A stretch of DNA of 64,000 bases from Candidatus Kapaibacterium sp. (GTDB lineage: Bacteria; Bacteroidota; Ignavibacteria; Kapaibacteriales; UBA4661). Below the pieces are notes generated by a model. The model was not told the DNA's origin and searched no databases. It saw only the letters and a program-made list of their open reading frames with translations. Where the stretch lies: the NCBI GenBank assembly GCA_025358765.1, contig JANYIG010000093.1, forward strand, positions 65,355 to 129,354, read 5' to 3'. Shown piece after piece: positions 3,033 to 60,070 of the stretch; position 1 is the first letter of the stretch; each line of letters opens with the position of its first letter. The position numbers were made by a program, and so were the translations under genes.

Positions 3033-4943
3033 ATGAAATTAGAACTTATGACGCTTTTCAACGCGGCAGCAGAGGATTCAGCCACCAATACGGTGCACCA
3101 CCAATCACCAATTCTTCATCTCCCAACAGCAAACACGAGTCCGGGCATAATGATTCCCGGTATTACGCTTTCCGGTGCATTCCGCTTACGGCGCGGGCAG
3201 CATGAGTTTCTGCTCAAACTTGCTGAGGCATTCCGCGAGCGTGAAGCGAATCATCTCGGCGTGTTCGTGCCGGGCTATGGCAAAACAATTACCGCATTAG
3301 CATCGTTTCTTGTGGCGCGTTCGTTGTGTATCGCACAAAAGCTGGTTGTATTCGTGCCGCGTGGCAATCTGCGTGACCAATACGCTGATCCAAAAGAATT
3401 AGGGACGATTATGCGGCATCTCGGTGCACCACCACTTTCGTTTTGTATTGCCGACAATGAACGTGCCTTTCTGAAAAATCTCCACACCGATGTCATTATA
3501 ACCACATATCAGTATGCAAGCGGTCGCGGCGGCAACGAAGCCCTGTTGCAATTTTGCCGTAGAACATTGTGTATGTTTGTGTTCGACGAGGTGCATCATT
3601 TGTCCGAAGAAGGCACGTGGGCAATGAATATCAAAAAATTCCCCTTTGCCTGTAGTGTAGCGCTCTCTGGAACGCCCATGCGCTCCGATAACAAAACACT
3701 CTTTGGCGTTCCGACGGAAACGAGGCAGGGAGCCGATGGGAAGCTCACACAATTTTACACGCCACTCCACGAAGTTGCATTGCGCGATGCTCACGCCGAA
3801 GGCAGCATTTTGAAACGTGTGGCAGTGCATGTGATTGACTACAACGTCAAACTCAAGAATACAGACACGGGTGAAATCGTGGATATTTCGCTTTCAAAAA
3901 TGGCGGACGAAAACCGCAACGGCAACGAGGTAGATGCTTTTCTTGCACGAAAAAAACTACGATTTCACGAAGTTTATTTGGATGCCTTGCTGCGTCCAGC
4001 ATTCGAGCGTTTTGGCGAAAAACGCCGCGCTCAACACCAAATATCACTTTCTAATCCTGCCACACACGAAAAGCGTCAACACCAGATGCTCGTTATTGCT
4101 ATGAGCAACGCCCATGCGGCTGCTACTTTGGAGTTTGTGCAAAAGCAATTTCCGCAATATGTTTCAGCCCGCATTGGGCAAGACGTTCCCGATGCCGAGC
4201 GCCAGAAGGCGCTTCAGGCATACCGCAACGGCGCGGTGGATGTGATGGTGCAGGTGGATATGATAGGTGAAGGTACGGACATCAAGCCGATTAGTATCAT
4301 CGTGAAGGCAGATTTGGTGCGAGCGCTGTCCAAAACACTTCAGCAAATTTTTCGGGGAATGAGGTATTATGCGGGTTTTAGCGACGAGGCAAATGTATGC
4401 GACATTTATGCCTCGAACGACTCCGACGTGGTGCAAATTTTAGAATGGATTGCAAGCGAAGAGGAAATCGGCGTGACGCTCAAAACCAAACGCCTTCAGG
4501 AAGAGCGTAAAAGTCGCGAGATGAACGGCACACAACAAGCATGGGAACTGCTTTCGGTGGAACACAACGAAACAGCCACGCATGGTTTAGAGCTTTTTGA
4601 CGGTTATATGCGCCCGATGCCTGTGGTCACAAATAAATCACGCAAGAAAATGGAGCCATTTTTTTCGGTGGATAACGAGCGTCAGAGCCTTCAGTACGCC
4701 TTTGATGTCGTTGCACACGAACGTCAGTTGCGGCAGGAATGTTCCACTCTTGCAGCAAAATTAGCTCTAAGCCTTGCGTCTAATGTTCACACGAGCGGAA
4801 CCCAAAAGCAAAGCGCCATCAGCCAGATTCACGCCGCCGCCATTCGTCGTTTTGCCAAGACGCAAGATGATATGAGCATTCCTGAATTGGCTAAAAAACG
4901 AGATTGGCTCTTGGAATGTTTACGACTGAGAAAAGTGATTTGA
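3033..4943 (+). CDS. Superfamily-2 DExH-box helicase (ResIII/HsdR-like ATPase core) with an uncharacterised 180-aa C-terminal domain
   Basis: Motif I is PGYGKT, motif II is FDEVHH, motif III is SGTP, motif V region is VDMIGEGTDI, and motif VI is QQIFRGMRYY (Q..GR..R). No nuclease motif was recognised. Confidence 0.8.
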   Translation: MKLELMTLFNAAAEDSATNTVHHQSPILHLPTANTSPGIMIPGITLSGAFRLRRGQHEFLLKLAEAFREREANHLGVFVPGYGKTITALASFLVARSLCIAQKLVVFVPRGNLRDQYADPKELGTIMRHLGAPPLSFCIADNERAFLKNLHTDVIITTYQYASGRGGNEALLQFCRRTLCMFVFDEVHHLSEEGTWAMNIKKFPFACSVALSGTPMRSDNKTLFGVPTETRQGADGKLTQFYTPLHEVALRDAHAEGSILKRVAVHVIDYNVKLKNTDTGEIVDISLSKMADENRNGNEVDAFLARKKLRFHEVYLDALLRPAFERFGEKRRAQHQISLSNPATHEKRQHQMLVIAMSNAHAAATLEFVQKQFPQYVSARIGQDVPDAERQKALQAYRNGAVDVMVQVDMIGEGTDIKPISIIVKADLVRALSKTLQQIFRGMRYYAGFSDEANVCDIYASNDSDVVQILEWIASEEEIGVTLKTKRLQEERKSREMNGTQQAWELLSVEHNETATHGLELFDGYMRPMPVVTNKSRKKMEPFFSVDNERQSLQYAFDVVAHERQLRQECSTLAAKLALSLASNVHTSGTQKQSAISQIHAAAIRRFAKTQDDMSIPELAKKRDWLLECLRLRKVI

Positions 4944-4980
4944 GCAGCAGAAAATGTCTAAAAAATACCCCCTAAGTTCC

Positions 4981-5101
4981 AATGTCATTAAGTTAAGTCC
5001 CTCACCCAAACCCTCTCCCAGAAGTAGAGGGCTTCAAATCTCCCTCCTTCTCCCTTTGGGAGAAGGTCGGGATGAGGGAGATTCCTTAACTTAATGCCAT
5101 T
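4981..5101. mobile_element. 121-bp MITE-like hairpin element, copy 1
   Basis: The terminal inverted repeats are AATGTCATTAAGTTAAG at the left end and CTTAACTTAATGCCATT at the right end. The interior contains the palindromes ttctccctttgggagaa and ccctcaccc...gggatgaggg. It is flanked by the direct repeat accccctaagttc at 4967-4979 and 5102-5114. It matches 59841..59961 at 119 of 121 positions. Confidence 0.75.
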
Positions 5102-5763: not shown

Positions 5764-5787
5764 CCTGCTTACGTCCCTCCATGGACA

Positions 5788-5826
5788 ACATACCTACGAA
5801 ACATACCTACGAGACGTACCTACGAA
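5788..5826 (+). promoter_or_regulatory. Three tandem 13-bp direct repeats (ACRTACCTACGAR) upstream of the SusC-like gene
   Basis: The three units are acatacctacgaa, acatacctacgag and acgtacctacgaa, contiguous about 250 bp upstream of the ATG at 6076. Confidence 0.4.
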
Positions 5827-6075: not shown

Positions 6076-9000
6076 ATGAATACACGGCTTCTACGATATG
6101 TATGTGTATTGCTGCTGGCGCTGTGTGCGTGTTCGACGCTCGCATGGGCGCAACGCACGATTACTGGTAAAGTCACCGATGATGATAGCAAACGCCTGCT
6201 TGCTGGCGTAAAAATCCTCGTCAAAGGTGGCAATACTGGCACACTTACCAACAAAGATGGTTCGTATTCCATCAACGCCGGAAGCGCAACGGCGCTTATT
6301 TTCAGCTATATCGGCATGAAAAAGCAGGAGGTTTCCATTGGCGATAAAACGACGGTGGACGTGGTGATGAAAGTAGATTCCAAATTGCTTGACGACGTGG
6401 TTGTGACGGCACTTGGCGTTGAACGCGAACGCCGTGCGGTCAACTATGCCGTGCAGGACATAAAAGCAGACGAAATTTCGCAATCGTCGCAGCAAAACAT
6501 GGTAAACGCGCTGCAAGGCAGAATCGCGGGTGTACAGATTACAAACGCCGGCGGCGCTCCGGGTGCGGGTTCCAGCATTATTATTCGTGGCGGAAACTCG
6601 GTGGATTCTGACAATCAGCCGCTGTTCGTGATTGATGGTATTCCGATGGATAACAACACAACTGCCGAAACTGCAGGCGGCAATAGTTCGCTCAACGCCC
6701 AACTTGCTCGCAGCGTCTCGAACTCCAACCGCGCAATGGACATCAACCCCGACGACATCGAAAGCATGAGTGTTCTTAAAGGTCCTGCTGCTGCTGCACT
6801 CTACGGGCTTCGTGCTGCAAACGGCGTGGTGATTATCACTACCAAACGTGGCTTCAAAGAGAAGTTAGAAGTGACCTACAGTAATTCGTTTTCGTGGGAC
6901 GTGGCAAACAAATTGCCCGAAACACAATCTATCTACAAACAAGGCACGGGCGGCTTTTATGACGTTACGACCCGCAATTCTTACGGTCCGCGTTTTCAGC
7001 CGGGCGAGGCGATATACGACAACATGGGTAATTTTTTCGGGACGGGGTTCGCACAACAACACAACATCAACGTTTCGGGCGCGAGTGATCGCTTAAATTA
7101 TTTTTTCTCCGGCTCATCGTTTAATCAAAAAGGGATTATTCCCGGCACAGACTGGACGCGGCTTTCGTTCCGTTTCAACGGCGGCGCGGCGGTTTCCTCA
7201 AGTTTCAAGATCAACACTTCGCTTAATTATACCAACTCCGGCGGCACAAAAGTGCTTCAAGGCGCAGGCTTGTACACAGGTGATTTTGCCGGTACGGGCG
7301 GATACCTTTGGAGTACGGTGTATTGGCCCAAAAACGACGACATGCGGAACTGGCAAAACTCCGACGGTACAAGGCGGCGCTTCTTGACGAATTCTGCCAC
7401 GACGGACGACGCAGACAATCCATATTTTGCAATCAACAAATGCCCCATCACGGACAATGTTGACCGGATAATCGGCAATGTGAGTATGGTCTATGACCCG
7501 TTTGAATGGCTTAATGTCACGTACCGTGCGGGCGGAGACTTCACAAACGAGCGGAGCCTTAGTGTTCGTGCCTACGGCTCGTCATTACCAAATAGTCAGA
7601 AAGGAAGCATTTCGGAGTCAAAAAATAACCGCGCAAACCTCAGCTCAAATCTCTTGCTCACGTTCAAACCGTATATTTCCGAAGACATTAAGGCTGATTT
7701 TTTGGTCGCAAACTCAGTGGAGACGGAGTACTTTAACGCGACAGATTATTTCGGTAGAAACTTCATTAACCCAGATTTCGTGAGCATCAACAACACTGAC
7801 CCGCTTGAAAACCGTGTGGTGGAGCGCATCACACAGCGCCGTTTGTTCTCGTTTTACGGCAGCGCGAATCTGAACTGGAAAGACAAAGTGTACATCGGCT
7901 TGAACGCCCGTAACGACTGGTCTTCCACGTTGCCGGTGGCAAACCGTTCGTTCTTCTATTATTCCACAACGCTTGGTTATGTGTTTAACGAGGATTTAGG
8001 GTTTGACTTCTTGAGCTACGGCAAACTACGTGGTTCTTATGCTCGCGTGGGCAAAGATGCTTCGCCGTACCGCACGGGAACAGCGCTTACCTCAAATGTC
8101 TATCTTGGCGGCGGCTTCCGTAATGACTTTTGGGCAGGCAATGACCAGCTCAAACCTGAAACAACAGAAGGCATCGAAGCAGGTGTGGAGTTGAAATTCC
8201 TTGACAATCGCATTGGTCTTGATGTCACGGTTTATCGCCAGCGCACCATTGACCAGCTTATTGCGCCACGCATCAGCCAAGGCTCTGGCTTCATCTTTGC
8301 ATATTTGAATGGTGGAACCGTCGAGAACAAAGGCGTGGAAATTCTATTGACTGCAACACCCGTCAGAACTGCCGATTTTTCGTGGTTTTTGGGCGTGAAC
8401 TTCACAGCAAACACGAGCAAAGTTGTCGAGTTGCCGTCGGTGTTGACGGAATTAAATCAGTCCGATGCTTCAGTGACTAATGTTGCACGTGGGTCGGCAT
8501 TCCCGGGTTATCCATTGCAAGCAATCAGTGTAAACGACTACCAACGCTCGACCGATGGAAAAAACAGCATCTTGATTGACGGCACAACGGGGTACCCACT
8601 TTCGATTAACGGCGCGACGTGGAAGTATGCTGGTAATCGTCAGCCAGATGCGATGATTGGCATTACGAATTCCTTCACGCTTGATAATATCACATTTTCG
8701 TTTTTATGGGATATCCGCATCGGCGGCAAAGTTGTGAATGGCACTGAATGGGAAATGGTTCGTGCAGGCATGAGTACAAAAACGCTTGACCGCTACAAAA
8801 CTGCTGTCCTCACGGGCGTTGTACGGACTATCTCCGGCACTGATACCACGTACACTCCAAACACAAAATCAGTAGAGCTTACGGAAAACTATTACCGTCT
8901 CTTTTACGGTGGTGCTGGAGCAAACTTTGTGGAAGATGGTTCGTGGGTGCGCCTCCGGACGGTAAATCTGAGCTATCGTTTCCCAAAAACATTGTTTGAA

Positions 9001-9192
9001 GGCACACCGATTTCCGGCGCGGAAATCACGCTTACAGGCAGAAACCTTCTGCTATTCACGAAATATTCGGGCATGGATCCGGAAGTGTCCGCAGCAGGCG
9101 CAGGCGTGAAAGGTGCTGGCTCGAACGGCATGGATTATCTTGGTATTCCTTCCACGAAGGGCTTCACGGTGGGCTTACGATTGACGCTGTAG
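6076..9192 (+). CDS. SusC/RagA-family TonB-linked outer-membrane transporter
   Basis: 1038 aa. There is a signal peptide. The N-terminal carboxypeptidase-regulatory-like region (TITGKVTDDDSKRLLAGVKILVKGGNTGTLTNKDGSYSI) is followed by a plug domain (DDVVVTALGVERERRAV, DINPDDIESMSVLKGPAAAALYG) and a long beta-barrel. A strong Shine-Dalgarno sequence (taggaggt) precedes the ATG. A SusD-like gene follows. Confidence 0.9.
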   Translation: MNTRLLRYVCVLLLALCACSTLAWAQRTITGKVTDDDSKRLLAGVKILVKGGNTGTLTNKDGSYSINAGSATALIFSYIGMKKQEVSIGDKTTVDVVMKVDSKLLDDVVVTALGVERERRAVNYAVQDIKADEISQSSQQNMVNALQGRIAGVQITNAGGAPGAGSSIIIRGGNSVDSDNQPLFVIDGIPMDNNTTAETAGGNSSLNAQLARSVSNSNRAMDINPDDIESMSVLKGPAAAALYGLRAANGVVIITTKRGFKEKLEVTYSNSFSWDVANKLPETQSIYKQGTGGFYDVTTRNSYGPRFQPGEAIYDNMGNFFGTGFAQQHNINVSGASDRLNYFFSGSSFNQKGIIPGTDWTRLSFRFNGGAAVSSSFKINTSLNYTNSGGTKVLQGAGLYTGDFAGTGGYLWSTVYWPKNDDMRNWQNSDGTRRRFLTNSATTDDADNPYFAINKCPITDNVDRIIGNVSMVYDPFEWLNVTYRAGGDFTNERSLSVRAYGSSLPNSQKGSISESKNNRANLSSNLLLTFKPYISEDIKADFLVANSVETEYFNATDYFGRNFINPDFVSINNTDPLENRVVERITQRRLFSFYGSANLNWKDKVYIGLNARNDWSSTLPVANRSFFYYSTTLGYVFNEDLGFDFLSYGKLRGSYARVGKDASPYRTGTALTSNVYLGGGFRNDFWAGNDQLKPETTEGIEAGVELKFLDNRIGLDVTVYRQRTIDQLIAPRISQGSGFIFAYLNGGTVENKGVEILLTATPVRTADFSWFLGVNFTANTSKVVELPSVLTELNQSDASVTNVARGSAFPGYPLQAISVNDYQRSTDGKNSILIDGTTGYPLSINGATWKYAGNRQPDAMIGITNSFTLDNITFSFLWDIRIGGKVVNGTEWEMVRAGMSTKTLDRYKTAVLTGVVRTISGTDTTYTPNTKSVELTENYYRLFYGGAGANFVEDGSWVRLRTVNLSYRFPKTLFEGTPISGAEITLTGRNLLLFTKYSGMDPEVSAAGAGVKGAGSNGMDYLGIPSTKGFTVGLRLTL

Positions 9193-9283
9193 CTTTGTAA
9201 TGAAGAATTAGGAATTGAGAATTAAGAATTTTCTCGTTCCTCATTTGTATTATTATTCCACATCAAGACAATACTATTTTATT

Positions 9284-10777
9284 ATGATTATGAAAAAGCT
9301 CATTCTTCTTTTTTCGTTGGTCTGCGGGTTAGTTGCGAGTGGTTGTAACTCGTTTCTGGACGTGAATACCAACCCGAATTATCCCGAAACGGCAGCTCCA
9401 TCGGCTATTTTGCCGGGTATCATCTCGAACGGCTCGCAGCAATACTTTTTGAGCGTAAATCAAAGCGGTTATTACGTCCAGCACCTCGGCGGACGGACAA
9501 TCAATAACGCAAAAGATCAATTTTTCTTGACCAACCTTGCAAGCCCGTTTAACGATACCTATTTCCGCACGACGGGCAACATCAAGCCTTTGATAGAAGC
9601 TGCAACGAAGGAAGGTTCTCCGTATTACGTGGGGGCCGGCAAAACGCTAATGGCACTCTGGATAGCGCATTTGACTGATTGCCACGGTGATATTCCGTAT
9701 TCCGACGCATTTAATGCAGCAGCGAACTACACGCCCAAATACGACACGCAGGAACAGATTTACGCGACGGTACAAAAGCTCTTGGACGAGGCGTTGGTGG
9801 AATTCAATAAACCTGCATCCAGTAATCTACGCCCTTTGAGCGACCGCGATGCGGATTTGTTCTTCGCCGGCGATGTGAGTAAATGGATAAAATTGGTGTA
9901 TTCGCTGCGGGCACGCCAACTCAATCATTTGTCCAAAAAATCCTCGTACAGCGCACAAGCAGTGCTGGCGGCGATTGATAACGGGATAAAAGCGAACAGC
10001 GACGATGCCCAATTGCAGTTTAATATTACGCAAGTAGCTCTTACAAATCCATGGGCTCCCGCACGTGCCAATGTGAACACGGCAACGTTTGGTCGGTACT
10101 TTATTAACATGCTCAATGGTACAACGTTGGGTGGTGGCATTGACCCCCGTCTGCAAATCATTGCTCCGGGTAATCGCGGTGGTGTTATCAATGGTTCTGG
10201 TGAGGCAACTACGCCGAGCCCGAATCGGACAGATTTTTATGGTGTGTATCTCACAACCAAAGTTCCACCGGAAGTTCCTGATACGTCCGGCTGGTACGCA
10301 CGTCCGGCTGGTGTGCAGCTTGTTTTCACAAACGCTGAAGTACGGTTTATCGAGGCAGAAGCCGCGTTCCGTTCGGGTGACAAAGGACGTGCCTATACAG
10401 CATACACAGCAGGTATCACGGCGCATTTGGTCAAACTTGGTGTGGCAGCGGCTGCTCAAACGGCGTATTTAGCGAGTGCTGCCGTTGCGAAAGATGCCTC
10501 GTCTCTAACATTGAAGAACATTATGCAGCAAAAATATATTGCCATGTTCCTGCATCCTGAAACATGGGTGGATATGCGCCGCATGGACTTCAGCGCCGAT
10601 ATTTATACGAATTTTCAACAGCCGACAAATCCAAATTCTGCGATGAAAGGACAGTTCCCGCGCCGCTTTTTGCCGGGTACCACAGAAAACCTGTACAACC
10701 CCGTTAATGCGAACAAGGAAGTCGCTGGAGCTGCGGATTACATAGGCTTGATTCCGGTATGGTGGGATAAACCGTAA
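9284..10777 (+). CDS. SusD/RagB-family nutrient-binding outer-membrane lipoprotein. The track ORF starts at 9215. The start is taken as M24 at 9284, where M24/M26 (9284/9290) immediately precede a lipoprotein signal.
   Basis: The lipobox is LVASGCNSF. The size (about 500 aa), position immediately after SusC, and the C-terminal WWDKP-type ending are typical of the SusD family. Confidence 0.8.
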   Translation: MIMKKLILLFSLVCGLVASGCNSFLDVNTNPNYPETAAPSAILPGIISNGSQQYFLSVNQSGYYVQHLGGRTINNAKDQFFLTNLASPFNDTYFRTTGNIKPLIEAATKEGSPYYVGAGKTLMALWIAHLTDCHGDIPYSDAFNAAANYTPKYDTQEQIYATVQKLLDEALVEFNKPASSNLRPLSDRDADLFFAGDVSKWIKLVYSLRARQLNHLSKKSSYSAQAVLAAIDNGIKANSDDAQLQFNITQVALTNPWAPARANVNTATFGRYFINMLNGTTLGGGIDPRLQIIAPGNRGGVINGSGEATTPSPNRTDFYGVYLTTKVPPEVPDTSGWYARPAGVQLVFTNAEVRFIEAEAAFRSGDKGRAYTAYTAGITAHLVKLGVAAAAQTAYLASAAVAKDASSLTLKNIMQQKYIAMFLHPETWVDMRRMDFSADIYTNFQQPTNPNSAMKGQFPRRFLPGTTENLYNPVNANKEVAGAADYIGLIPVWWDKP

Positions 10778-12853: not shown

Positions 12854-14155
12854 ATGAGTACAATTCTCTCGCCTAAGTCACCCAAAACAGGCATCCTTCC
12901 CATTACGCAGCACACGCTGGCGAACGGTTTGCGCGTGGTCGTGATTCCCAAATTCACTGCACCTGTCGTGGCGGTTGCCGTCACTTATCAAGTGGGTTCA
13001 TACTCTGAATCGCCTGACAATACTGGCTTTGCACACTTTTTTGAGCATTTGATGTTTGAAGGCTCTGAAAACGTGGCACACGGCATGTTCGACAAATATT
13101 GTACCGAGGCGGGCGGTGACAACAATGCTTACACGACTTACGACAAAACAACGTATTACATGACGCTCCCGGCGCACCAGTTGGAGCTTGCGCTCTGGCT
13201 TGAGGCTGACCGTATGGCGGCGTTTGGCGTTACGCAAGAGGCGTTAGATGTTCAACGAAATGTTGTGCTGGAAGAAATAAACCAAAACGTGGAGAACTCG
13301 CCCTACGGCACGTTTTCGCGGGTGCAAAACCGCCTTGCGTTTGCGCCGGAAGCGGGCTACCACTGGGAAGTCTATGGCGATCCGGCGCATATTGCCGCTT
13401 CGACGCTTGCGGATGTGCAGAATTTTTTTACGGATTTTTATCGCCCTGACAATGCGTGTTTGGTGGTGTGTGGCGCGGTGCAGCCAGAAGCCGCGTTGGA
13501 ACTTGTTCAGAAGTATTTTAACAGCATTCAAGCAGGTGCTTCGCCTGTTCGTCGCAAAAACTTCCAATCGGAATATCGTTATACGGGCGGGCGGTACCAG
13601 CGTGTGGAAGATGCTATCCCTACTAATACGCTATTTCTGTCGTTTCACGGCGAGGGCTATATCAACGATGAGGTCAATGCTGCGGAAATCCTTTCGAGCA
13701 TCCTTTCCGACGGCATCAGCTCCCGTCTTTATAAAGCATTGGCGTACGAGCAGCAAATCGCCTCCGAAATCAACTGTTATCTCGACGACCGCCAATTTAC
13801 CTCGCTTTTCACCATTTACACCATTGCCAACGGCGACGGAATCACCTGCGAAGCGCTGTATGACGGCGTATATGCGGTGTTGAGCGACATAGCTGCAAAA
13901 GGCGTGACACCGCAAGAAATGGCAAAAGCTCAGAACCGACTTACCACAAGACTTGCGCGAACGCTCCAACGCGCCAACGGTATTGCAGATGAAGCAGCGC
14001 ACCAAACGCTCTTTTTCGGCGACCCAAACCGTACGTTCACGCTGATGGATGGTTACAACGCCGTCACTGCTGATGCTGTACAAGCATTAGCGCAGAAACT
14101 CTTTACGAAGGAAAATGAAATTCGGATAGATTTTGTGCCGAAGACAAGCGCGTAA
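12854..14155 (+). CDS. M16-family (pitrilysin/insulinase-like) zinc peptidase
   Basis: The HxxEH zinc motif (HFFEHLMFEGSEN) is present. The N-terminus (LANGLRVVVIP) is typical of M16. The track ORF begins at a TTG at 12809. The ATG at 12854 (MSTILSPK...) is preferred. Confidence 0.85.
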   Translation: MSTILSPKSPKTGILPITQHTLANGLRVVVIPKFTAPVVAVAVTYQVGSYSESPDNTGFAHFFEHLMFEGSENVAHGMFDKYCTEAGGDNNAYTTYDKTTYYMTLPAHQLELALWLEADRMAAFGVTQEALDVQRNVVLEEINQNVENSPYGTFSRVQNRLAFAPEAGYHWEVYGDPAHIAASTLADVQNFFTDFYRPDNACLVVCGAVQPEAALELVQKYFNSIQAGASPVRRKNFQSEYRYTGGRYQRVEDAIPTNTLFLSFHGEGYINDEVNAAEILSSILSDGISSRLYKALAYEQQIASEINCYLDDRQFTSLFTIYTIANGDGITCEALYDGVYAVLSDIAAKGVTPQEMAKAQNRLTTRLARTLQRANGIADEAAHQTLFFGDPNRTFTLMDGYNAVTADAVQALAQKLFTKENEIRIDFVPKTSA

Positions 14156-14179
14156 GAATCTATATGCCTGAACACGTTA

Positions 14180-14326
14180 GTACCGAACGGATTTGAGCGC
14201 AGAGGCTGACGGAAACCGTCAAGAGAGCGCAGAGAATCTAAAAAGAGAAGGCTACATTATATTCTCAAACTCTCCCCACGTGGTACGTGGCTCCCTGACT
14301 CTGCGCTCATTGTACCGCAAAGCGTT
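14180..14326. repeat. Intergenic GCGCAGAG-type repeat element, short (147 bp) version, in inverted orientation relative to 23125..23377
   Basis: Positions 14180-14239 are the reverse complement of 23318-23377. Positions 14271-14326 are the reverse complement of 23125-23186. Both elements begin with GTACCGAACG. Confidence 0.7.
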
Positions 14327-14352
14327 AGGGACTGAAGTCTGAGTACAAAAAC

Positions 14353-15048
14353 TTATTCGCCCAACAAGTCAGGACGGCGCTTACGGGTTTTTTGAAGCGC
14401 TTGTTCTTCGCGCCATTGGATGATAAGTTTGTGATTCCCGCCTTGCAGCACCTCCGGTACGCCTATGCCGCGAAACTCTGCGGGGCGCGTGTAATCGGGC
14501 GGCGCAAGCAATCCGTCTTGGAATGAATCTGTCAATGCCGACTCCATGTCACTCATGGCTCCGGGCAACAGCCGCACAATTGCGTCGGTCAGCACCAGTG
14601 CCGGAAGCTCTCCGCCCGTCAGAACGTAATCGCCAATCGAAATTTCCCGCGTCACTAGCATATCCCGAATGCGCTGGTCAATGCCTTTGTAATGTCCTGC
14701 GAGCAAAATGAGATTGGACTTCAAGGAGCATTCGTTGGCAATGGTTTGCGTGAGTTGTTCGCCATCGGGCGTGAGGAAAATAATCTCGTCATAACATCGT
14801 TCCGCCTGCAATACATCTACGCAGGCAAAAACGGGTTCACATTTCAACACCATACCCGCTCCGCCACCAAATGGCTCGTCGTCAATTTGCCGATAGCGCC
14901 CAACGCCATAATCGTGCAAATTGTGAACATGGATTGCTACTGAACCAGCGTCCTGAGCGCGTTTAAGAATGCTTTCCCCCAACACTGACGTGAGTAGCTG
15001 CGGTACGGCGGTGATGATGTCTATCCGTAACCATGATTTGGTTGGCAT
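14353..15048 (-). CDS. trmD: tRNA (guanine37-N1)-methyltransferase
   Basis: 231 aa. The SPOUT-fold TrmD pattern is present ([34 protein letters not shown]). It lies immediately downstream of rimM, with a 1-bp overlap, as in the conserved operon. Confidence 0.9.
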
Positions 15049-15620: not shown

Positions 15621-15805
15621 TAGAACCTAACTCATTACGATGAAATTGAGCGCAGAGGCAAAGAGAACGCGGAGTTTTGGAAATGAAATTTAAGGTTCTC
15701 TATTCATATATTCTTGATTCTCTGAACCCTCTCAAGCCTCTGTGGTCAAATCTGTTAGGTAGCAAGATTCACCGACCCAAAACGGGTTTCATTATTTCCG
15801 AACAC

Positions 15806-19689: not shown

Positions 19690-19770
19690 CAGAGCAGAAC
19701 CCCTCCCAAAGGGCCGAGGGCTTCGGATATTGCTCCTTCTCCTCTGGGAGAAGGCGGGGGATGAGGGTTA
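19690..19770. repeat. Diverged copy of the MITE-like hairpin element
   Basis: It shares gagggcttc, ctccttctcc, tgggagaagg and gggatgaggg blocks with 4981..5101. The termini are not conserved. Confidence 0.5.
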
Positions 19771-20118
19771 GAAACAGTAATTGGAGTCTGCGAAGATAGA
19801 AGATTAGCGGGATAAATCCGTGTTTTCTTGCAATAGCGTGTCACGACGGACGCTCTATGATGTTTTTGGTAAACGCGCTGTGTTAAAAGGCATTTTCTTC
19901 GTATTTTCCGATGAAGTTGTTTAAAGTTTTTTACCGCAGAGGCACAGAGGGCGCAGAGAATCAAGGTTCAAAAAAATAGAGGTTCAAAAAAGAAAGATTG
20001 TCAACTTTCTCCGCTTCTGCTTCTTTGCACCCCTACGGTCAAATCTTAAAAATAGCAAACAAGTTCTTTATCAACAACCCGTATTTCAATTTTTGATTAC
20101 CGCACACAAGCATTTGTT

Positions 20119-20628
20119 ATGAATATCCTCAACGGTTCCGCCAAGGCGACGAACGCGACCGAAACCACAAACGATGTGAATCTTGACCACCTCAAAGAAC
20201 AGTTTGCAGCGTTTCTCAAGCAAAAAAACTACCGCAACACGCAAGAGCGTTATTTGGTTTTGGATAATATCGTCCAATTTGAAGCACATTTTAGTGCCGA
20301 CGAGTTGTATCTTGCCATGCGGATAGCAGGTGTGAATGTATCAAGGGCAACGATTTACTCCACGCTCGACCTACTCACCAAGTGCAATATCCTGATGAAA
20401 CATCGGTTTCAAGGCGATAGTGCCCACTTCGAGCTTGCCGACAAAATGCCTAACCACGACCACTTGATTTGCACGGAATGCGGTCATATCGTGGAATTTC
20501 AAGAAGAATCGCTTAATAAAATCAGCGACGACATCGGCAAACAGCTTGGCTTCAAACCCCTCAAACACTCGCTTCAAGTCTTTGCTGTTTGCAACGACAT
20601 CCGCAACTGCGAACACAATAAGTCGTAA
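20119..20628 (+). CDS. fur: Fur-family metal-uptake transcriptional regulator
   Basis: 169 aa. The metal-site motifs HDHLICTECGHIVEF and HSLQVFAVC(NDIRNC)EH are present. Confidence 0.85.
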   Translation: MNILNGSAKATNATETTNDVNLDHLKEQFAAFLKQKNYRNTQERYLVLDNIVQFEAHFSADELYLAMRIAGVNVSRATIYSTLDLLTKCNILMKHRFQGDSAHFELADKMPNHDHLICTECGHIVEFQEESLNKISDDIGKQLGFKPLKHSLQVFAVCNDIRNCEHNKS

Positions 20629-20703
20629 ATGTGGAAACCTTATGGTTAAAAGCCGGAAGAATTTTTGTAATTTTACGGTCTTGTCGTATCTTTACGTCAT
20701 ATT

Positions 20704-21672
20704 ATGACCCTGAGCGAAATAAGCAAGCCCATTGAACGATACATTAGCGAGTTTGAAGAAGTCTTTAAACACCAAATGAAATCCAACGTTCTGTTGTTAG
20801 ATACCGTTGTTCGGTATATGATGAAGCAGCGTGGGAAGCGTGTTCGTCCGATGTTGGTGCTGCTCAGTGCTGCGGTGTGCGGTGAGGTTAGCCGCCGCAC
20901 GTATGTTGGGGCAAGTATGGTAGAACTCCTGCATACGGCATCGCTTGTACACGACGACGTGGTAGATGAAGCTGATGAGCGGCGTGGCATGGCATCTATC
21001 AACGCAATTTGGAAAAACAAGATAGCAGTGCTGGTTGGTGATTATTTGCTTTCGCGGGGATTGTTGGTGGCGGTAGAAAACAGCGAGTTCGAGTTTTTGC
21101 GGATTACGAGCAATGCCGTGAAGCGGATGAGTGAAGGCGAATTGCTTCAAATCCAGAAATCACGCCAGCTCGACATTGACGAAGCTACATACTTTCGCAT
21201 TATTGGCGACAAAACAGCATCGTTGATTTCTACGTGTTGCGAAATTGGTGCTACGAGCGCTTCCGAAGTGCCTGAACATAGGGCGGCTTTACGTGATTAT
21301 GGTGAAATTGTGGGTTGTGTGTTCCAAATTCGGGATGACATTTTCGATTACACCAGTAGTAACCTCATCGGCAAGCCAACGGGCAATGATGTGAAAGAGA
21401 AAAAACTTACGCTGCCGTTGATTTACGCCTTTTCGCAGGCAACAAAAAAAGAATCAAAAGCAATTTTAAAAGTAATTAAAAACGGTGCGAAAAACGCCGA
21501 GGTTCGAGAAGTCGTCACATTTGTCCGCTCCTACGGTGGACTTGATTACGCTGAAAAAAAAGCACAATCATTGATTGAAGAGGCAAAACAACGTCTTGAT
21601 ATTTTTGACAATTCGTCGGCAAAAATTTCTTTGCTAAATTTTGCTGATTTTTCGCTCCAACGCTCGACGTAG
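20704..21672 (+). CDS. Polyprenyl diphosphate synthase (trans-isoprenyl diphosphate synthase family)
   Basis: The first DDxxD motif is LVHDDVVDE and the second is IRDDIFDY. The length is 322 aa. Confidence 0.85.
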   Translation: MTLSEISKPIERYISEFEEVFKHQMKSNVLLLDTVVRYMMKQRGKRVRPMLVLLSAAVCGEVSRRTYVGASMVELLHTASLVHDDVVDEADERRGMASINAIWKNKIAVLVGDYLLSRGLLVAVENSEFEFLRITSNAVKRMSEGELLQIQKSRQLDIDEATYFRIIGDKTASLISTCCEIGATSASEVPEHRAALRDYGEIVGCVFQIRDDIFDYTSSNLIGKPTGNDVKEKKLTLPLIYAFSQATKKESKAILKVIKNGAKNAEVREVVTFVRSYGGLDYAEKKAQSLIEEAKQRLDIFDNSSAKISLLNFADFSLQRST

Positions 21673-21826
21673 AACCATTCGGTATAGAATAAGAAAAGTT
21701 TTGGGACTATTGTTTTACGATTTGAATTTGCGCCCCTCCTTATTTCGCCAATTCAACACGTACTACGGAAATCTCAAAATTCAACAAAATCCTCCCTTGT
21801 TTTCAGCAGCATAAACGAGAATTTGT

Positions 21827-22969
21827 ATGAACGTTTCCGCAACTTTTGCACTCGAAGCGCAACAGTGCTTGGAGCGTGGCGATGCCGCCGCCGCTATAGC
21901 ACTTTGCCGCACTGGACTTGCCAAGTATCCGCATTACGTCACGGCGTATTTGGTGCTTGCCCGCGCCCATATGGCAACAGGTGATTATGATTCCGCCGAC
22001 AAAGCCATTCAGCATGGTATTCAGACCACTCCTCGTACTCGTAGCTTCAGTACACTCCGACGACAATTTTCCCCGGCAATTTCCTCAGCCAGCATGTATG
22101 TTGTGCCGGATGTTCTCCGCGAAGTCGTTGAACGCGAGGTCGCAACGCCTTTCGTTGACACCCTTTCGGACGGAACGCTTGCAACGGGACTTGCTTCAGC
22201 TGGCTTAGTAGCCGCTGCCGCACTGAAATCGCTTGAAACAGAGCCGGAAGAGATTGACGTACCGTCGGCAGCAGAAAAGATTGTTACCGAGCAAAAGCAG
22301 CCCGCCATCGTTAGTGTACCTGAAGAGCAATCATTTAGTAAACGCACAATTGGTGGTTATTTACAAATTATCGAGCCGCTCGGCAAAGCTGCACCTAAAA
22401 GTTCTTTGAGAAGTAATAATATCCGTTTGATACCGGGTTTAGAATTTACTTCGTTGCGTATGGAATCTGGTTCACTTGGCAGGCATCCGTCGTATCGCCG
22501 CACGTATTCATTGCCGGAACTGCCCACCACACGTGGCTTTGAGATTCCTTTCGACGATCAACAAAGTGTATTCGCTGTTTCTCGCTATTCGGTCAACGAT
22601 ATTGCCGATGAACATCCGCCTCATTCCGGCGCAGATACAACCACGCAAGAATTGGATGACTTGGCAGAACGTCTTTCGACGGTACAAATGCCATCGGTCA
22701 ACGAATTGTTGGAGCGCGAGAGCGATACAGAGCCACCCGCAGCCGTTGTTGCAGCTTTAGACGAAACGCCACGTATTGCGAAGGCTCTTGTTAGCGAAAC
22801 AATGGCGAATATCTATGTCATGCAGGGCGCATATTCACAGGCGCTTGAGGCATATCAAGCATTGATGGATGTTACAGATGATGCCGTAAAAAACGCTTCT
22901 CTGAGAAAAAAAATAGAGCAGGTGCAATCCAAACTTATCGAAGAAGCGAATGCCAAGCGGACAAGTTAA
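21827..22969 (+). CDS. Tetratricopeptide-repeat protein with a disordered central region
   Basis: TPR-like helices occur at the N-terminus (GDAAAAIALCRTGLAKYPHYVTAYLVLARAHMATGDYDSA) and at the C-terminus (MANIYVMQGAYSQALEAYQALMDV). Confidence 0.6.
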   Translation: MNVSATFALEAQQCLERGDAAAAIALCRTGLAKYPHYVTAYLVLARAHMATGDYDSADKAIQHGIQTTPRTRSFSTLRRQFSPAISSASMYVVPDVLREVVEREVATPFVDTLSDGTLATGLASAGLVAAAALKSLETEPEEIDVPSAAEKIVTEQKQPAIVSVPEEQSFSKRTIGGYLQIIEPLGKAAPKSSLRSNNIRLIPGLEFTSLRMESGSLGRHPSYRRTYSLPELPTTRGFEIPFDDQQSVFAVSRYSVNDIADEHPPHSGADTTTQELDDLAERLSTVQMPSVNELLERESDTEPPAAVVAALDETPRIAKALVSETMANIYVMQGAYSQALEAYQALMDVTDDAVKNASLRKKIEQVQSKLIEEANAKRTS

Positions 22970-23050
22970 TGTATTCTTTAATGTATTCTCTGTCAAATAA
23001 TTAGTGACACTTAGTGTCAAATATTACGGACATCTCTTGCTTAAAATGAA

Positions 23051-23081
23051 CCTGTCAAATTTCGATTTGGCAGGTTTTTTA
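23051..23081 (+). terminator. Rho-independent terminator after the TPR gene
   Basis: The hairpin is cctgtcaaatttcgatttggcagg, followed by ttttttat. Confidence 0.6.
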
Positions 23082-23124
23082 TTTGTGAGTATCTTTTCCT
23101 CAAATCATTATCGCACGAGTTCAG

Positions 23125-23377
23125 TACCGAACGCTTTGCGGTACGATGAGCGCAGAGTCAGGGAGCCACGTACCCGTGGGGAGAGTTTGAAAATAAAATT
23201 TTTTAGTTCTCATTGGTTTCCGTTGGAAAAACCAGTTTTTAGGAGAAAAAAATTGCGGCAATGAACGATGGACCGTCATTCCAACGAAAACCAATGAGAA
23301 TCTTTTTTCTGCCGTGTAGATTCTCTGTGCTCTCTTGACGGTCTCCGTCAGCCTCTGCGCTCAAATCCGTTCGGTAC
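23125..23377. repeat. Intergenic GCGCAGAG-type repeat element, long (253 bp) version, with GTACCGAACG terminal inverted repeats and an internal inverted repeat
   Basis: The ends match 14180..14326 in inverted orientation. The internal inverted repeat is agttctcattggtttccgttggaa versus ttccaacgaaaaccaatgagaatct. The 86-aa ORF 23004..23264 inside it is not considered real. Confidence 0.7.
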
Positions 23378-23665
23378 TAAAAAATCGCACGAGTAATTGT
23401 ACAAAGCACTAAAGGATTATCACTTTGTAACAATATTGTCTCAAAACTGAACAGCAGTGCTGGATAGAGTACCTGCCATAAGCATAGCAGAGGGATATTT
23501 TTTTTATTGTCATGGACACAAAACCCTGATAAAAACCCATGTTGAGAGACTGTAACCCTCTATGGAGCTTGACGTTCCGAGACTGGTACGATTCTTGACA
23601 GTAGAATCTCAGAGTAGAATAGATTTTCGTATCAAGAAAAACACGTATCACTTACTTTTACCATA

Positions 23666-26218
23666 ATGCGTAGCATATACCATTCTTTTTGCACCACCGC
23701 TTCTTCCTGCTTCACCATGATGGCAGTTGCGATGTTGGTTGCGGTTTCACCATTCACCGCGTTGCGGCTTGCAGCACAGGCTATCACAGCGCCAGAGCAA
23801 GATTGCGTCGGGGCGCTTCCCATTGCTGATAGCGTGTTTATTCAACCGAACTCCTATCGTGGTTTTGGAAAAATCAACGAACTTGGATTGTCGTGTATCG
23901 GCGTGGAGCGTAATTCGGCGTGGTACAAAGTGACTGCCCAGGCAGATGGGCAGCTTGGGTTCGAGCTTATTCCGAATAACCCAAGAGATGACTATGATTG
24001 GTCGGTCTTTTTAATACCTCCAGGACGAACCTGTGCAGATATCGCCGCCGGTGCGGTTCCAGAGGTAAGCTGCAATTTTTCCACGATGCCTGGGAATACA
24101 GGAGCAAACGGCGCGGGTGCGGGGAATAAACAAGACAGCAAAGGTTCACCATTTAATGCGACGATTTCCGTTCGTGCTGGCGAAACATATTATATCGTCA
24201 TCACGAACTATATTGTGAACACTATTGCGAATACTGCTGGCTATCAATTACGATTTACGTCATCCTCGAAAGGCGTTATTGGAACTGGAGTAACCGGTGC
24301 TACAGTTATTCCTTCAGGCGCACCGTCGCCACGGATAGTATCGCTTACCGTTGACCAAGGCACATGTTCTGTGCAAAACCTAAACGTGTTGTTTTCCGAA
24401 TACATGAAGTGTAATTCAATTATACCAGATGATTTTACGATTACAGGTGCCGATGGTGCAAAATATCCCGTTACTGAGGTATTCTCGAGTCGCATGGAGC
24501 GTTCGACGGATAATTTCGACACTCTTTTTACACTCACGTTTGCCAATCCTATCTTACAATCAGGTGTCTATAAATTTGCTGTCACAGGCACGGTAAATAC
24601 CCTTAGCGGTATTCCATTCCCAACTGCCAGCACAACATTGACTATCAATCTCCCCAACATCAACCCGAGCATCACGGGAGCTACAGTATTCTGTGCGAAT
24701 GGCAATACGTCGTTGGATGCAGGCGGGGGTTATCTGTCGTATCAGTGGTACAAAGGTCTAACAGGCAATGTGTTGGTCGGCAACGGGCAATCGTTGTTTG
24801 TAACGGAGCCAGATGTTTATACAGTTATCGTCCGCGATAAAAGTGGTTGTTCGGGACGGTCATCTATTAGTACGCGCCATCGCACAGATAGGCTGCCGGT
24901 GAATATCGGCGGATTCCGTTATATGTGTGGAAGCGGTCCCGCGCTGCTGGATGCTGGCGATGGCTACAAAATTTATCAATGGTCAACAGGCGATTCCACG
25001 CGCTTTATTACTGTCAAAAAGCCCGGAACCTATACCGTAAACGTTCTGGACGTTCAAGGCTGTTCTGGTACGTCAACAGCAGTTGTGACGCTGCTTACGA
25101 GCATCACGCCTCGTATAACAGGAGCCTCGCAATTCTGTCAGGGCGATACAATATGGCTGTATGCTGGTGAATACGCCACCTATGAATGGTATTACGAGGG
25201 CGCATTGATGAAAGACTTACAATGGTCGTACGTTCCTGTTACCAAGCCCGGCACGTACAAAGTGCGCGTAGCAACAAATGGCTGTACAGCTGAATCTGCG
25301 CCATTTGTCCTCAAAATGAATCTTCTGCCCGCCAAACCGATAGTGAATATCAACGGGAATATCTGCACCGCACCACTTGCGGCATCATACCAATGGAACA
25401 AGGTGATTGGGCAAACGCACATTCCAATTCCGCAGGCAAATGACCGCACATTCTCACCGACACAGATAACGGGTTTGTACTCCGTGACCGTTCGGGATAC
25501 AAATAGTTGTGCCTCCCGTTCAGATTCTCTTTTCTTCGTTCATGTGGACGGCGATGCGGAACTGGAAGTCGGCACGGTAACAGCCGAGCAGGGTAAATTG
25601 GTGGACATCCCGATCTATCTCCGCAAAAACCGTAATGTGTCACAAACAGGTGCTACGCAGTTTTCTGTAATGTTGCGCTGCAATCAAAGTTTGCTTGTTC
25701 CCGAAGATCGCCGTATTACCGAAAATACAGTTGCTCGTGGTGAACGTTTTGTAAAATTGACATTGCCCGTTCAGCCAATAGACCCACAAACAGGGCTTTT
25801 AGATAAATTCACCTTCCGCGCACAATCTGGTAGCACAAGTTCCACGTTGTTAGTATTAGAAAACGCTGTTTCATTGCCGCTTGGTAGTGGTGTGGTGACA
25901 ACAACAATCAATGGGAAATTCTCACTAACGGGATTTTACGTCGTTGTTACATCCGCAGCACTTGTTCTTGAGTCGCATCCGAATCCTGTAACCGATGAAC
26001 TTACGTGCGTATTTTCCGTGCCTGAAAATGACACTATTTCGCTTACTATTGTTGATGTAATGGGCAATACGGTGAAAAGTTTGCTGACGAACGAGCGTGT
26101 CCTTGCTGGAGCTAATACGATTACGGTAAATGTCAGCAATTTAGAAAAAGGCACATATTTTGTTGTGATACGCAGTAGTAAACAACGTATCGCTTCAGGA
26201 TTTACCGTCATGCGGTAA
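23666..26218 (+). CDS. Large secreted adhesin-like T9SS cargo protein with four SprB-like Ig-fold repeats and a type-A Por C-terminal sorting domain
   Basis: There are four 60-70 aa repeats of the pattern C.G..L.AG.GY..YQW..G....t..v..pGtYtV.v.D..GCsg.S. The C-terminus is LTCVFSVPENDTISLTIVDVMGNTVKSL...GTYFVVIRSSKQRIASGFTVMR. A signal peptide lies around M18 (23717). Confidence 0.7.
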   Translation: MRSIYHSFCTTASSCFTMMAVAMLVAVSPFTALRLAAQAITAPEQDCVGALPIADSVFIQPNSYRGFGKINELGLSCIGVERNSAWYKVTAQADGQLGFELIPNNPRDDYDWSVFLIPPGRTCADIAAGAVPEVSCNFSTMPGNTGANGAGAGNKQDSKGSPFNATISVRAGETYYIVITNYIVNTIANTAGYQLRFTSSSKGVIGTGVTGATVIPSGAPSPRIVSLTVDQGTCSVQNLNVLFSEYMKCNSIIPDDFTITGADGAKYPVTEVFSSRMERSTDNFDTLFTLTFANPILQSGVYKFAVTGTVNTLSGIPFPTASTTLTINLPNINPSITGATVFCANGNTSLDAGGGYLSYQWYKGLTGNVLVGNGQSLFVTEPDVYTVIVRDKSGCSGRSSISTRHRTDRLPVNIGGFRYMCGSGPALLDAGDGYKIYQWSTGDSTRFITVKKPGTYTVNVLDVQGCSGTSTAVVTLLTSITPRITGASQFCQGDTIWLYAGEYATYEWYYEGALMKDLQWSYVPVTKPGTYKVRVATNGCTAESAPFVLKMNLLPAKPIVNINGNICTAPLAASYQWNKVIGQTHIPIPQANDRTFSPTQITGLYSVTVRDTNSCASRSDSLFFVHVDGDAELEVGTVTAEQGKLVDIPIYLRKNRNVSQTGATQFSVMLRCNQSLLVPEDRRITENTVARGERFVKLTLPVQPIDPQTGLLDKFTFRAQSGSTSSTLLVLENAVSLPLGSGVVTTTINGKFSLTGFYVVVTSAALVLESHPNPVTDELTCVFSVPENDTISLTIVDVMGNTVKSLLTNERVLAGANTITVNVSNLEKGTYFVVIRSSKQRIASGFTVMR

Positions 26219-59605: not shown

Positions 59606-59728
59606 ATATCGTGAGTGGGTAGATTTTCCGCCAGCAAATATACAAAAAACTCATTGCACAGTGTAGAGTCACGATACAATCGGCTTGTTTGTGTATTTTT
59701 GTATGCTCTGTTTCAAATGAAGAGTTGA

Positions 59729-59760
59729 CCGCGGAGGCGCAGAGAGCGCAGAGGAAGAGC
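59729..59760. repeat. Short GCGCAGAG-type intergenic repeat (gcggaggcgcagagagcgcagaggaagagc). Related copies are at 15641-15680 and 19921-19960.
   Basis: The GCGCAGAG(R) core is shared with 14203-14239, 15649-15660 and 19940-19952. Confidence 0.5.
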
Positions 59761-59840
59761 AAAGAGAGAAGAACGATAGGAAAATATCAAACCCTGTATC
59801 ATTTTTTGAGAGTCAATGTCATTATCATTTTTTGAGAGTC

Positions 59841-59961
59841 AATGTCATTAAGTTAAGCCCCTCACCCAAACCCTCTCCCAGAGGTAGAGGGCTTCAAATC
59901 TCCCTCCTTCTCCCTTTGGGAGAAGGTCGGGATGAGGGAGATTCCTTAACTTAATGCCATT
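59841..59961. mobile_element. 121-bp MITE-like hairpin element, copy 2
   Basis: It matches 4981..5101 at 119 of 121 positions. It is flanked by tttttgagagt at 59829-59839 and 59963-59973. A 26-bp tandem duplication (atcattttttgagagtcaatgtcatt, twice) spans its left border. Confidence 0.75.
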
Positions 59962-60070
59962 GTTTTTGAGAGTATTCTCTGCACTCTCAGCGCCTCAGCG
60001 GTCGTAACGTCTTTCAGCATAAGAGTACACGCTTTGTGTTTCACAATCTTTCCACTGTTCTTCGCACTTT

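Follow-up and report, generated by a model that had tools for sequence, protein, structure and literature searches.

Two copies of a probable MITE-like palindromic element, one holding a nested 94-nt palindrome, in a Kapabacteria-like genome

The window, that is, the whole 64,000-nt stretch analysed here, has a G+C content of 48% and carries genes for T9SS-tail proteins, a SusC/SusD pair and rimM-trmD, among others. The nearest named relatives of its TrmD belong to 'Candidatus Kapaibacterium sp.' (81%) and to other Kapabacteria/Ignavibacteria MAGs. Two intergenic regions of the window share a repeat. The short copy, here named E1 (14177-14335, minus strand, 159 nt), sits between two convergent 3' ends, those of an M16 peptidase gene (12854-14155, plus strand) and of trmD (14353-15048, minus strand), in agreement with the first-pass annotation, which had placed it downstream of trmD. 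The long copy, E5 (23121-23383, plus strand, 263 nt), lies within a 696-nt spacer, 3' of a TPR gene and its terminator and 5' of a T9SS-tail gene. This terminator (23048-23077) is a canonical intrinsic one, with a 13-bp stem followed by a T-tract, and E5 is found about 40 nt further downstream. We use E2, E3 and E4 for diverged members of the same family and F1 for an unrelated repeat.

Repetitive sequences of other kinds are also present in the window. The first ORF (18-752) consists mostly of repeats between positions 96 and 600, with a unit of about 104 nt present three times and many 32-nt sub-repeats, which encode Gly/Arg-rich ...DRPRFG... motifs with no match in Pfam. At 5787-5826, the 13-nt unit AACATACCTACGA occurs three times in tandem, followed by the partly complementary TTCTCGTATTCTCGTAG. 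The genes of a TonB-dependent receptor and a SusD-like protein (6076-10777) lie about 250 nt downstream, and the units could be a regulator binding site.

The boundaries of E1 and E5 were set by homology and flanking repeats, using alignments and a repeat finder. Pairwise alignment divided the conserved sequence into two blocks, between which E1 shows a large gap. In the first block, 14177-14240 is the reverse complement of 23317-23380, with 62 of 64 positions identical (97%); in the second, 14256-14335 is the reverse complement of 23121-23199, with 74 of 80 positions identical (92.5%) and one 1-nt gap. The repeat finder recovered the first block as one pair of 64-nt arms (97% complementary) and the second as two pairs, 14282-14339/23117-23174 and 14256-14280/23175-23199. 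An 18- or 19-mer taken from each block occurs at exactly two loci of the window, E1 and E5, where 0.02-0.04 would be expected by chance. The inverted two-block match described in the first-pass annotation (14180-14326 against 23125-23377) is therefore real, its arms reaching slightly further than proposed, and the sequence GTACCGAACG, described there as a common start, is indeed present at one end of both copies. The distinction between a short and a long copy also stands, but the lengths of 147 and 253 bp become 159 and 263 nt on the basis of homology and flanks, and the spacers between the blocks, given as about 30 and about 130 bp, become 15 unaligned nt in E1 and about 117 nt in E5.

We then asked of both copies what they might encode. 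Only short ORFs (20-57 aa) are found inside them, in frames not conserved between E1 and E5 and without homologues, consistent with the earlier statement that neither copy codes for protein. For a 53-aa frame across E1, a search of 1.84 billion protein representatives yielded no relative, the sole match, to a PD40-repeat protein, being a chance one. An 86-aa ORF that enters E5 from the flank has its only other record in a further MAG of this species (see below). ARAGORN detected no tRNA or tmRNA. A transposase, Y1 or RAYT domain is absent from all 43 genes of the window, and full-length copies carrying a transposase or an IS200/IS605-type gene, which had been envisaged, are not present in these 64 kb. 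In size and in the lack of a transposase, E1 and E5 fall within the range of MITEs (about 50-800 bp).

The ends of the elements point in the same direction. E5 starts with TCAGTACCGAACG and finishes with CGTTCGGTACTAA, a terminal inverted repeat with 12 of 13 positions matching, 11 of them consecutive (AGTACCGAACG). E1 has an intact end, TTAGTACCGAACG (14177-14189), matching the reverse complement of its other end at 10 of 13 positions, and a degenerate end, CGTTAGGGACTGA (14323-14335), with two changes relative to E5. The consensus of the terminal inverted repeat in this young subfamily is T[C/T]AGTACCGAACG, and in both copies (12/13 in E5, 10/13 in E1) these repeats reach the length of about 10 bp or more that characterizes MITEs. 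E5 is flanked on the left (23110-23120) and on the right (23384-23394) by the perfect 11-bp direct repeat ATCGCACGAGT, a putative target-site duplication. This is the longest match between its flanks, and among random pairs of window flanks only 0.12% have a match of this length. Terminal repeats together with an 11-bp direct repeat are, in E5, the signature of transposition. At E1, several offsets gave no flanking duplication above chance, and none was found next to the ends of E2, E3 and E4, so that E5 is the only one of the five members with such a repeat.

E1 and E5 thus resemble bacterial MITEs in their length (159-263 nt), terminal inverted repeats, intergenic position, long stem-loop and absence of a transposase, as well as in the direct repeat of E5 (PMC3184786, PMC11602168). 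They differ from them in that the duplication measures 11 bp, whereas MITE target duplications are usually quoted as 2-10 bp (PMC11602168), and in that only one copy of the five in the window has it.

Since the elements are intergenic, hairpin-forming and non-coding, with GC-rich arms, we considered whether they are REP/REPIN-like or IS200/IS605-derived palindromes moved in single-stranded form by a Y1 (HUH) transposase or a RAYT, an origin that the first-pass annotation had also suggested in naming IS200/IS605. Neither IS200/IS605 elements nor REPs are known to have terminal inverted repeats or a target duplication, and the ends of E5 with their 11-bp flanking duplication contradict this suggestion. 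The elements are moreover 150-260 nt long, as opposed to 20-40 nt, and the window lacks a Y1/RAYT gene. We regard this origin as very improbable.

The pair belongs to a wider GCGCAGAG-type family, of which the window holds five imperfect-palindrome members, E1, E5, E2, E3 and E4, with E1 and E5 as the youngest copies. E2 (approximately 15621-15768, plus strand) is a diverged full-length member with outer inverted repeats ACCTAAC/GTTAGGT and a predicted fold that is devoid of the side hairpins seen in E1 and E5; set against E1 in inverted orientation, it aligns over its full length with 63% identity over 150 nt (blastn, E=2.6e-8). E3 (approximately 19931-20046, plus strand) has arms made of CGCAGAG-like octamers and ends in ...GGTCAAATC. 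E4 (approximately 59728-60005, plus strand) folds with a z of -9.95 and holds a nested copy of F1 at 59840-59962. These three diverged members match one another through their arms in blastn searches, and the family relationship was upheld by MAFFT and nhmmer; a sixth copy was found neither in the window nor in any fetched locus. E1 has the orientation opposite to that of the other four members. The octamer itself, counted as GCGCAGAG/CTCTGCGC, occurs 10 times in the 64 kb, and nine of these occurrences fall within the five intergenic elements.

All members follow a shared plan. The outer layer is the inverted repeat ACC[G/T]AAC, the second a stem of 10-11 bp, TGAGCGCAGAG/CTCTGCGCTCA, and the inner layers are degenerate octamers (GCA[C/A]AGAG, GCGCAGAG and complements) leading to an A/T-rich centre. 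Each is predicted to form a long imperfect hairpin, with z values ranging from -1.1 to -10. What sets E1 and E5 apart from E2-E4 is a pair of added side hairpins, TGACGG-nnn-CCGTCA and CCACG(T)-GGT-ACGTGG. In E1, these are TGACGG-AAA-CCGTCA (14207-14221), which is missing from the diverged members, and CCACGTGGTACGTGG (14276-14290), which in E5 reads CCACGGGTACGTGG, 1 nt shorter with the stem retained. The claim of a single intergenic repeat family was therefore borne out, with homologous E1 and E5, transposon-like ends and three further diverged members. The possibility that the blocks occur at two loci only, which would have spoken against such a family, applies to the exact blocks, present in the window at just E1 and E5, but not to the family as a whole, given the three diverged members.

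The outer inverted repeat ACCTAAC of E2 (15621-15630) ends 4 nt upstream of the predicted start of rimM (15620), so that the rimM translation-initiation region would fall inside E2.

The stability of these predicted folds (z -3 to -10) raises the question of whether the elements act as a functional structured RNA or as a transcription or mRNA-stability signal, for instance as a hairpin serving the M16 peptidase gene and trmD from both directions, kept by selection, a role compatible with a mobile origin. Indeed, E1 occupies the exact interval between two convergent 3' ends, for which there is no other terminator-like site, it is predicted to fold as a long branched hairpin on both strands (z -3.3 and -3.8), and effects on mRNA processing are known for MITEs such as ERIC and Correia (PMC3184786). 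Several observations argue against this role as the explanation of the elements. Rfam 15 gave no match at the gathering score or even at E<=1, the E1 hairpin is not followed by a T-tract, and upstream of E5 a canonical terminator (23048-23077) is already in place. A consensus structure built from four members has the core stem alone in common, with covariation that is uninformative for four sequences. Members are found between convergent, tandem and divergent neighbours, in orientations independent of the direction of transcription, and E2 and E3 fold better on different strands despite their same family orientation. These mixed gene contexts and the strand difference favour a palindrome acting at the DNA level over a strand-specific RNA, and the flanking duplication of E5 indicates insertion. 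A functional RNA or signal is, in our estimation, quite unlikely to be what these elements primarily are.

The F1 repeat provides a point of comparison within the same window. Its two copies (4980-5100 and 59840-59962; 121-123 nt) are 98% identical and unrelated to the GCGCAGAG-type family, with terminal inverted repeats of 18 nt, CAATG[T/G]CATTAAGTTAAG. The first copy has a 13-14-bp direct repeat, (T)ACCCCCTAAGTTC, on either side (4966-4979/5101-5114), and the second, nested in the centre of E4, has the 11-bp direct repeat TTTTTGAGAGT (59829-59839/59963-59973). F1 is a clean MITE, and its duplications of 13-14 and 11 bp indicate that long duplications accompany small-element insertions in this genome. 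Across the left junction of the nested copy there is a perfect 26-nt tandem duplication of TATCATTTTTTGAGAGTCAATGTCAT, in two copies (59797-59848), repeating 17 nt of flank and the first 9 nt of F1. A degenerate F1 core, CCCTCACCC...CCCTCTCCC...GGGAGAAGG...GGGATGAGGG, is found at 19698-19767 of the window, in a 523-nt spacer that also holds E3, and three further degenerate cores lie in intergenic regions of the Kapabacteria MAG GCA_013298775.1 (about 2688-2769, 3487-3600 and 4711-4805 of the fetched locus), one of them itself enclosed by a further inverted repeat.

We next considered how the long and the short copy are related. The first-pass annotation had taken E5 as the parent and E1 as an internally deleted derivative, with a unique spacer in E5. 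The excess of E5 over E1 consists mainly of a 94-nt palindrome nested in its centre (23207-23300), plus a 9-nt indel. The palindrome has 22-nt arms, TTCTCATTGGTTT[C/T]CGTTGGAA, matching at 21 of 22 positions, and folds as DNA with a z of about -4 to -4.7. No further copy of the palindrome was found in the window, in the fetched loci or in IMG/VR, and this self-contained unit makes up most of the spacer described as unique. The palindrome interrupts the stretch TTCTC|TTTTT, which is unbroken in E1 (…GCCTTCTCTTTTTAGATTCTCTG) and in E2 (as TTCTCTATT). The centres of E1, E2 and E3 measure roughly 40-45 nt, and that of E4 about 70 nt once the nested F1 is discounted; it is in this E4 centre that F1 lies whole, flanked by an 11-bp duplication of its own. 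No clear duplication flanks the 94-nt palindrome itself.

The possibility that the 263-nt copy is parental and gave rise to the 159-nt copy through an internal deletion draws on the fact that E1 and E5 have both ends in common and differ chiefly in the centre. It has a precedent in the Correia elements, which measure about 150 bp in one form and, where internally deleted, about 105 bp (PMC2649163). For E1, however, it would require the near-exact removal of a complete palindrome with 21/22 matching arms, leaving a junction that is unbroken in E1 as well as in E2, the diverged outgroup; short centres are found in every other member, and in E4 a small element nested at the same position is directly visible. 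The long copy encodes nothing, which argues against E5 being an autonomous parent. We therefore consider the deletion unlikely. Judged from the sequences, E5 is most likely the short form with an inserted 94-nt palindrome, which would reverse the polarity proposed earlier: insertion into E5 is the more parsimonious course given the self-contained palindrome, the unbroken TTCTC|TTTTT in E1 and E2, the short centres and the nesting in E4. The palindrome could also have grown in situ by template switching, since the copies without it also contain the TTCTC that forms its outermost 5 nt.

The elements can be compared with known families of small palindromes. Like E1 and E5, the Correia elements (CREE/nemis, Neisseria) are intergenic, form hairpins and come in two size classes with common ends; they have a TA (or CA) target duplication and 26-bp terminal repeats, and it is by deletion that their short class differs (PMC2649163). 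The present elements have terminal repeats of about 13 bp and an 11-bp duplication, an insertion best explains their long class, and in sequence they are not similar to Correia elements. An identity with Correia/CREE was rejected on account of the different ends and the 11-bp duplication. ERIC and the enterobacterial RU-1/2/3 elements are similar in that they, too, are imperfect palindromes (about 127 bp) whose shorter and longer variants are distinguished by internal segments. Longer ERIC-type variants reportedly hold insertions at internal sites, as Hulton in 1991 and Wilson & Sharp in 2006 are said to have described. The ERIC-type size classes are 103, 127 and 168 bp (PMC2759123), and ERIC flanks are of the TA type (PMC3184786). 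ERIC differs from the present family in belonging to another phylum, in lacking octamer-built arms and in showing no sequence similarity to it. A third likeness is to REP/BIME palindromes, which are intergenic and attract other mobile elements: insertions of IS1397, ISKpn1 and IS621 into them are the subject of references listed in PMC3184786. In our window, two of the five members hold a nested element in their centre; unlike in REP/BIME, the host palindromes are MITE-like and not 35-nt REPs, and the nested elements are small and non-coding.

Copies and related loci were also searched outside the window. The 19-mer TGAGCGCAGAGGCTGACGG, taken from a terminal block, gave six matches in the GTDB representative genomes and six in JGI metagenome contigs, all of them 19-23-nt chance matches in unrelated phyla, where the similarity went no further; this genome is perhaps absent from, or masked in, these collections. 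The terminal-repeat pattern had no match in IMG/VR, blastn against plasmids and phages gave no match, and a string search of the literature for GCGCAGAGGC returned irrelevant matches only. Around trmD, relatives whose TrmD is 77-81% identical show neither synteny with the window nor a member of the family. The species is represented by a second MAG (GCA_043724355.1, JAYSMU010000257.1), which aligns without gaps to positions 20338-24222 of the window at 99.69%; its 12 differences are all in genes, and E5 is identical and at the same site. An empty-site allele of E5 was not found, this MAG, in which the site is occupied, being the only comparable genome.

Public short-read assemblies of the organism break reproducibly inside E1 and F1, several of them beginning inside 59840-59962. 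Logan contigs (k=31) from several runs, when followed from the left, end at 14206, the first 30-mer common to E1 and E5. From the right they end at 14297, where E1 has no 30-mer in common with the rest of the window. As this second break is not explained by 30-mers of the window, a further copy or a strain variant in those samples would carry an E1-type right end.

E1 and E5 are each a non-coding imperfect palindrome with arms built of degenerate GCGCAGAG octamers. Taken together, these results suggest that both probably belong to one young subfamily of a MITE-like element that is non-autonomous and restricted to the lineage of this Kapabacteria-like genome. E5 would have been inserted by a transposase acting in trans, with cuts staggered by about 11 bp. 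The length of the duplication suggests an IS4-type DDE enzyme as a candidate mobiliser: IS4-family elements duplicate about 10 bp of their target, close to one helical turn, and their terminal inverted repeats are short (PMC2266710), although neither an IS4-type transposase nor a matching terminal repeat was found in the window. E1, with its degenerate ends and no duplication, may be an older or immobilised copy. A separate 94-nt palindrome and small indels would have entered the A/T-rich centre of E5, with no deletion in E1, and the hairpin centres of the family seem to be landing pads for other small elements. Effects on neighbouring genes, such as hairpins in transcripts, would be secondary.

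Several observations count against the MITE reading. E1 is 92-97% identical to E5 over the common blocks and has no duplication, one of the five members being duplicated at its flanks, and the 64-kb window contains no partner insertion sequence or transposase. The one comparable MAG has E5 at the same site, the scans of GTDB, JGI and IMG/VR gave nothing beyond chance, and 11 bp is just above the usual MITE duplication length. A doubtful alternative is that these are more than decaying MITEs, namely modular, Kapabacteria-specific palindromes with octamer arms, side hairpins and four-way-junction folds, moved by an uncharacterised transposase with cuts staggered by 11-14 bp, whose centres are preferred landing sites (occupied in two of five) and which were perhaps recruited as intergenic RNA or DNA structural signals.

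In conclusion, a MITE-like GCGCAGAG-type family would be an ordinary kind of bacterial repeat and leaves the current understanding of such repeats unchanged. Its flanking duplications, at 11-14 bp with those of F1 included, mean that a census assuming duplications of 2-10 bp (PMC11602168) could overlook such elements, and these repeats interrupt short-read assemblies of the organism. For this poorly studied, uncultured lineage (Kapabacteria-like and T9SS-bearing), E1 and E5 would represent an undescribed family of small mobile elements, which offers a clean example of small palindromic elements nested in one another.
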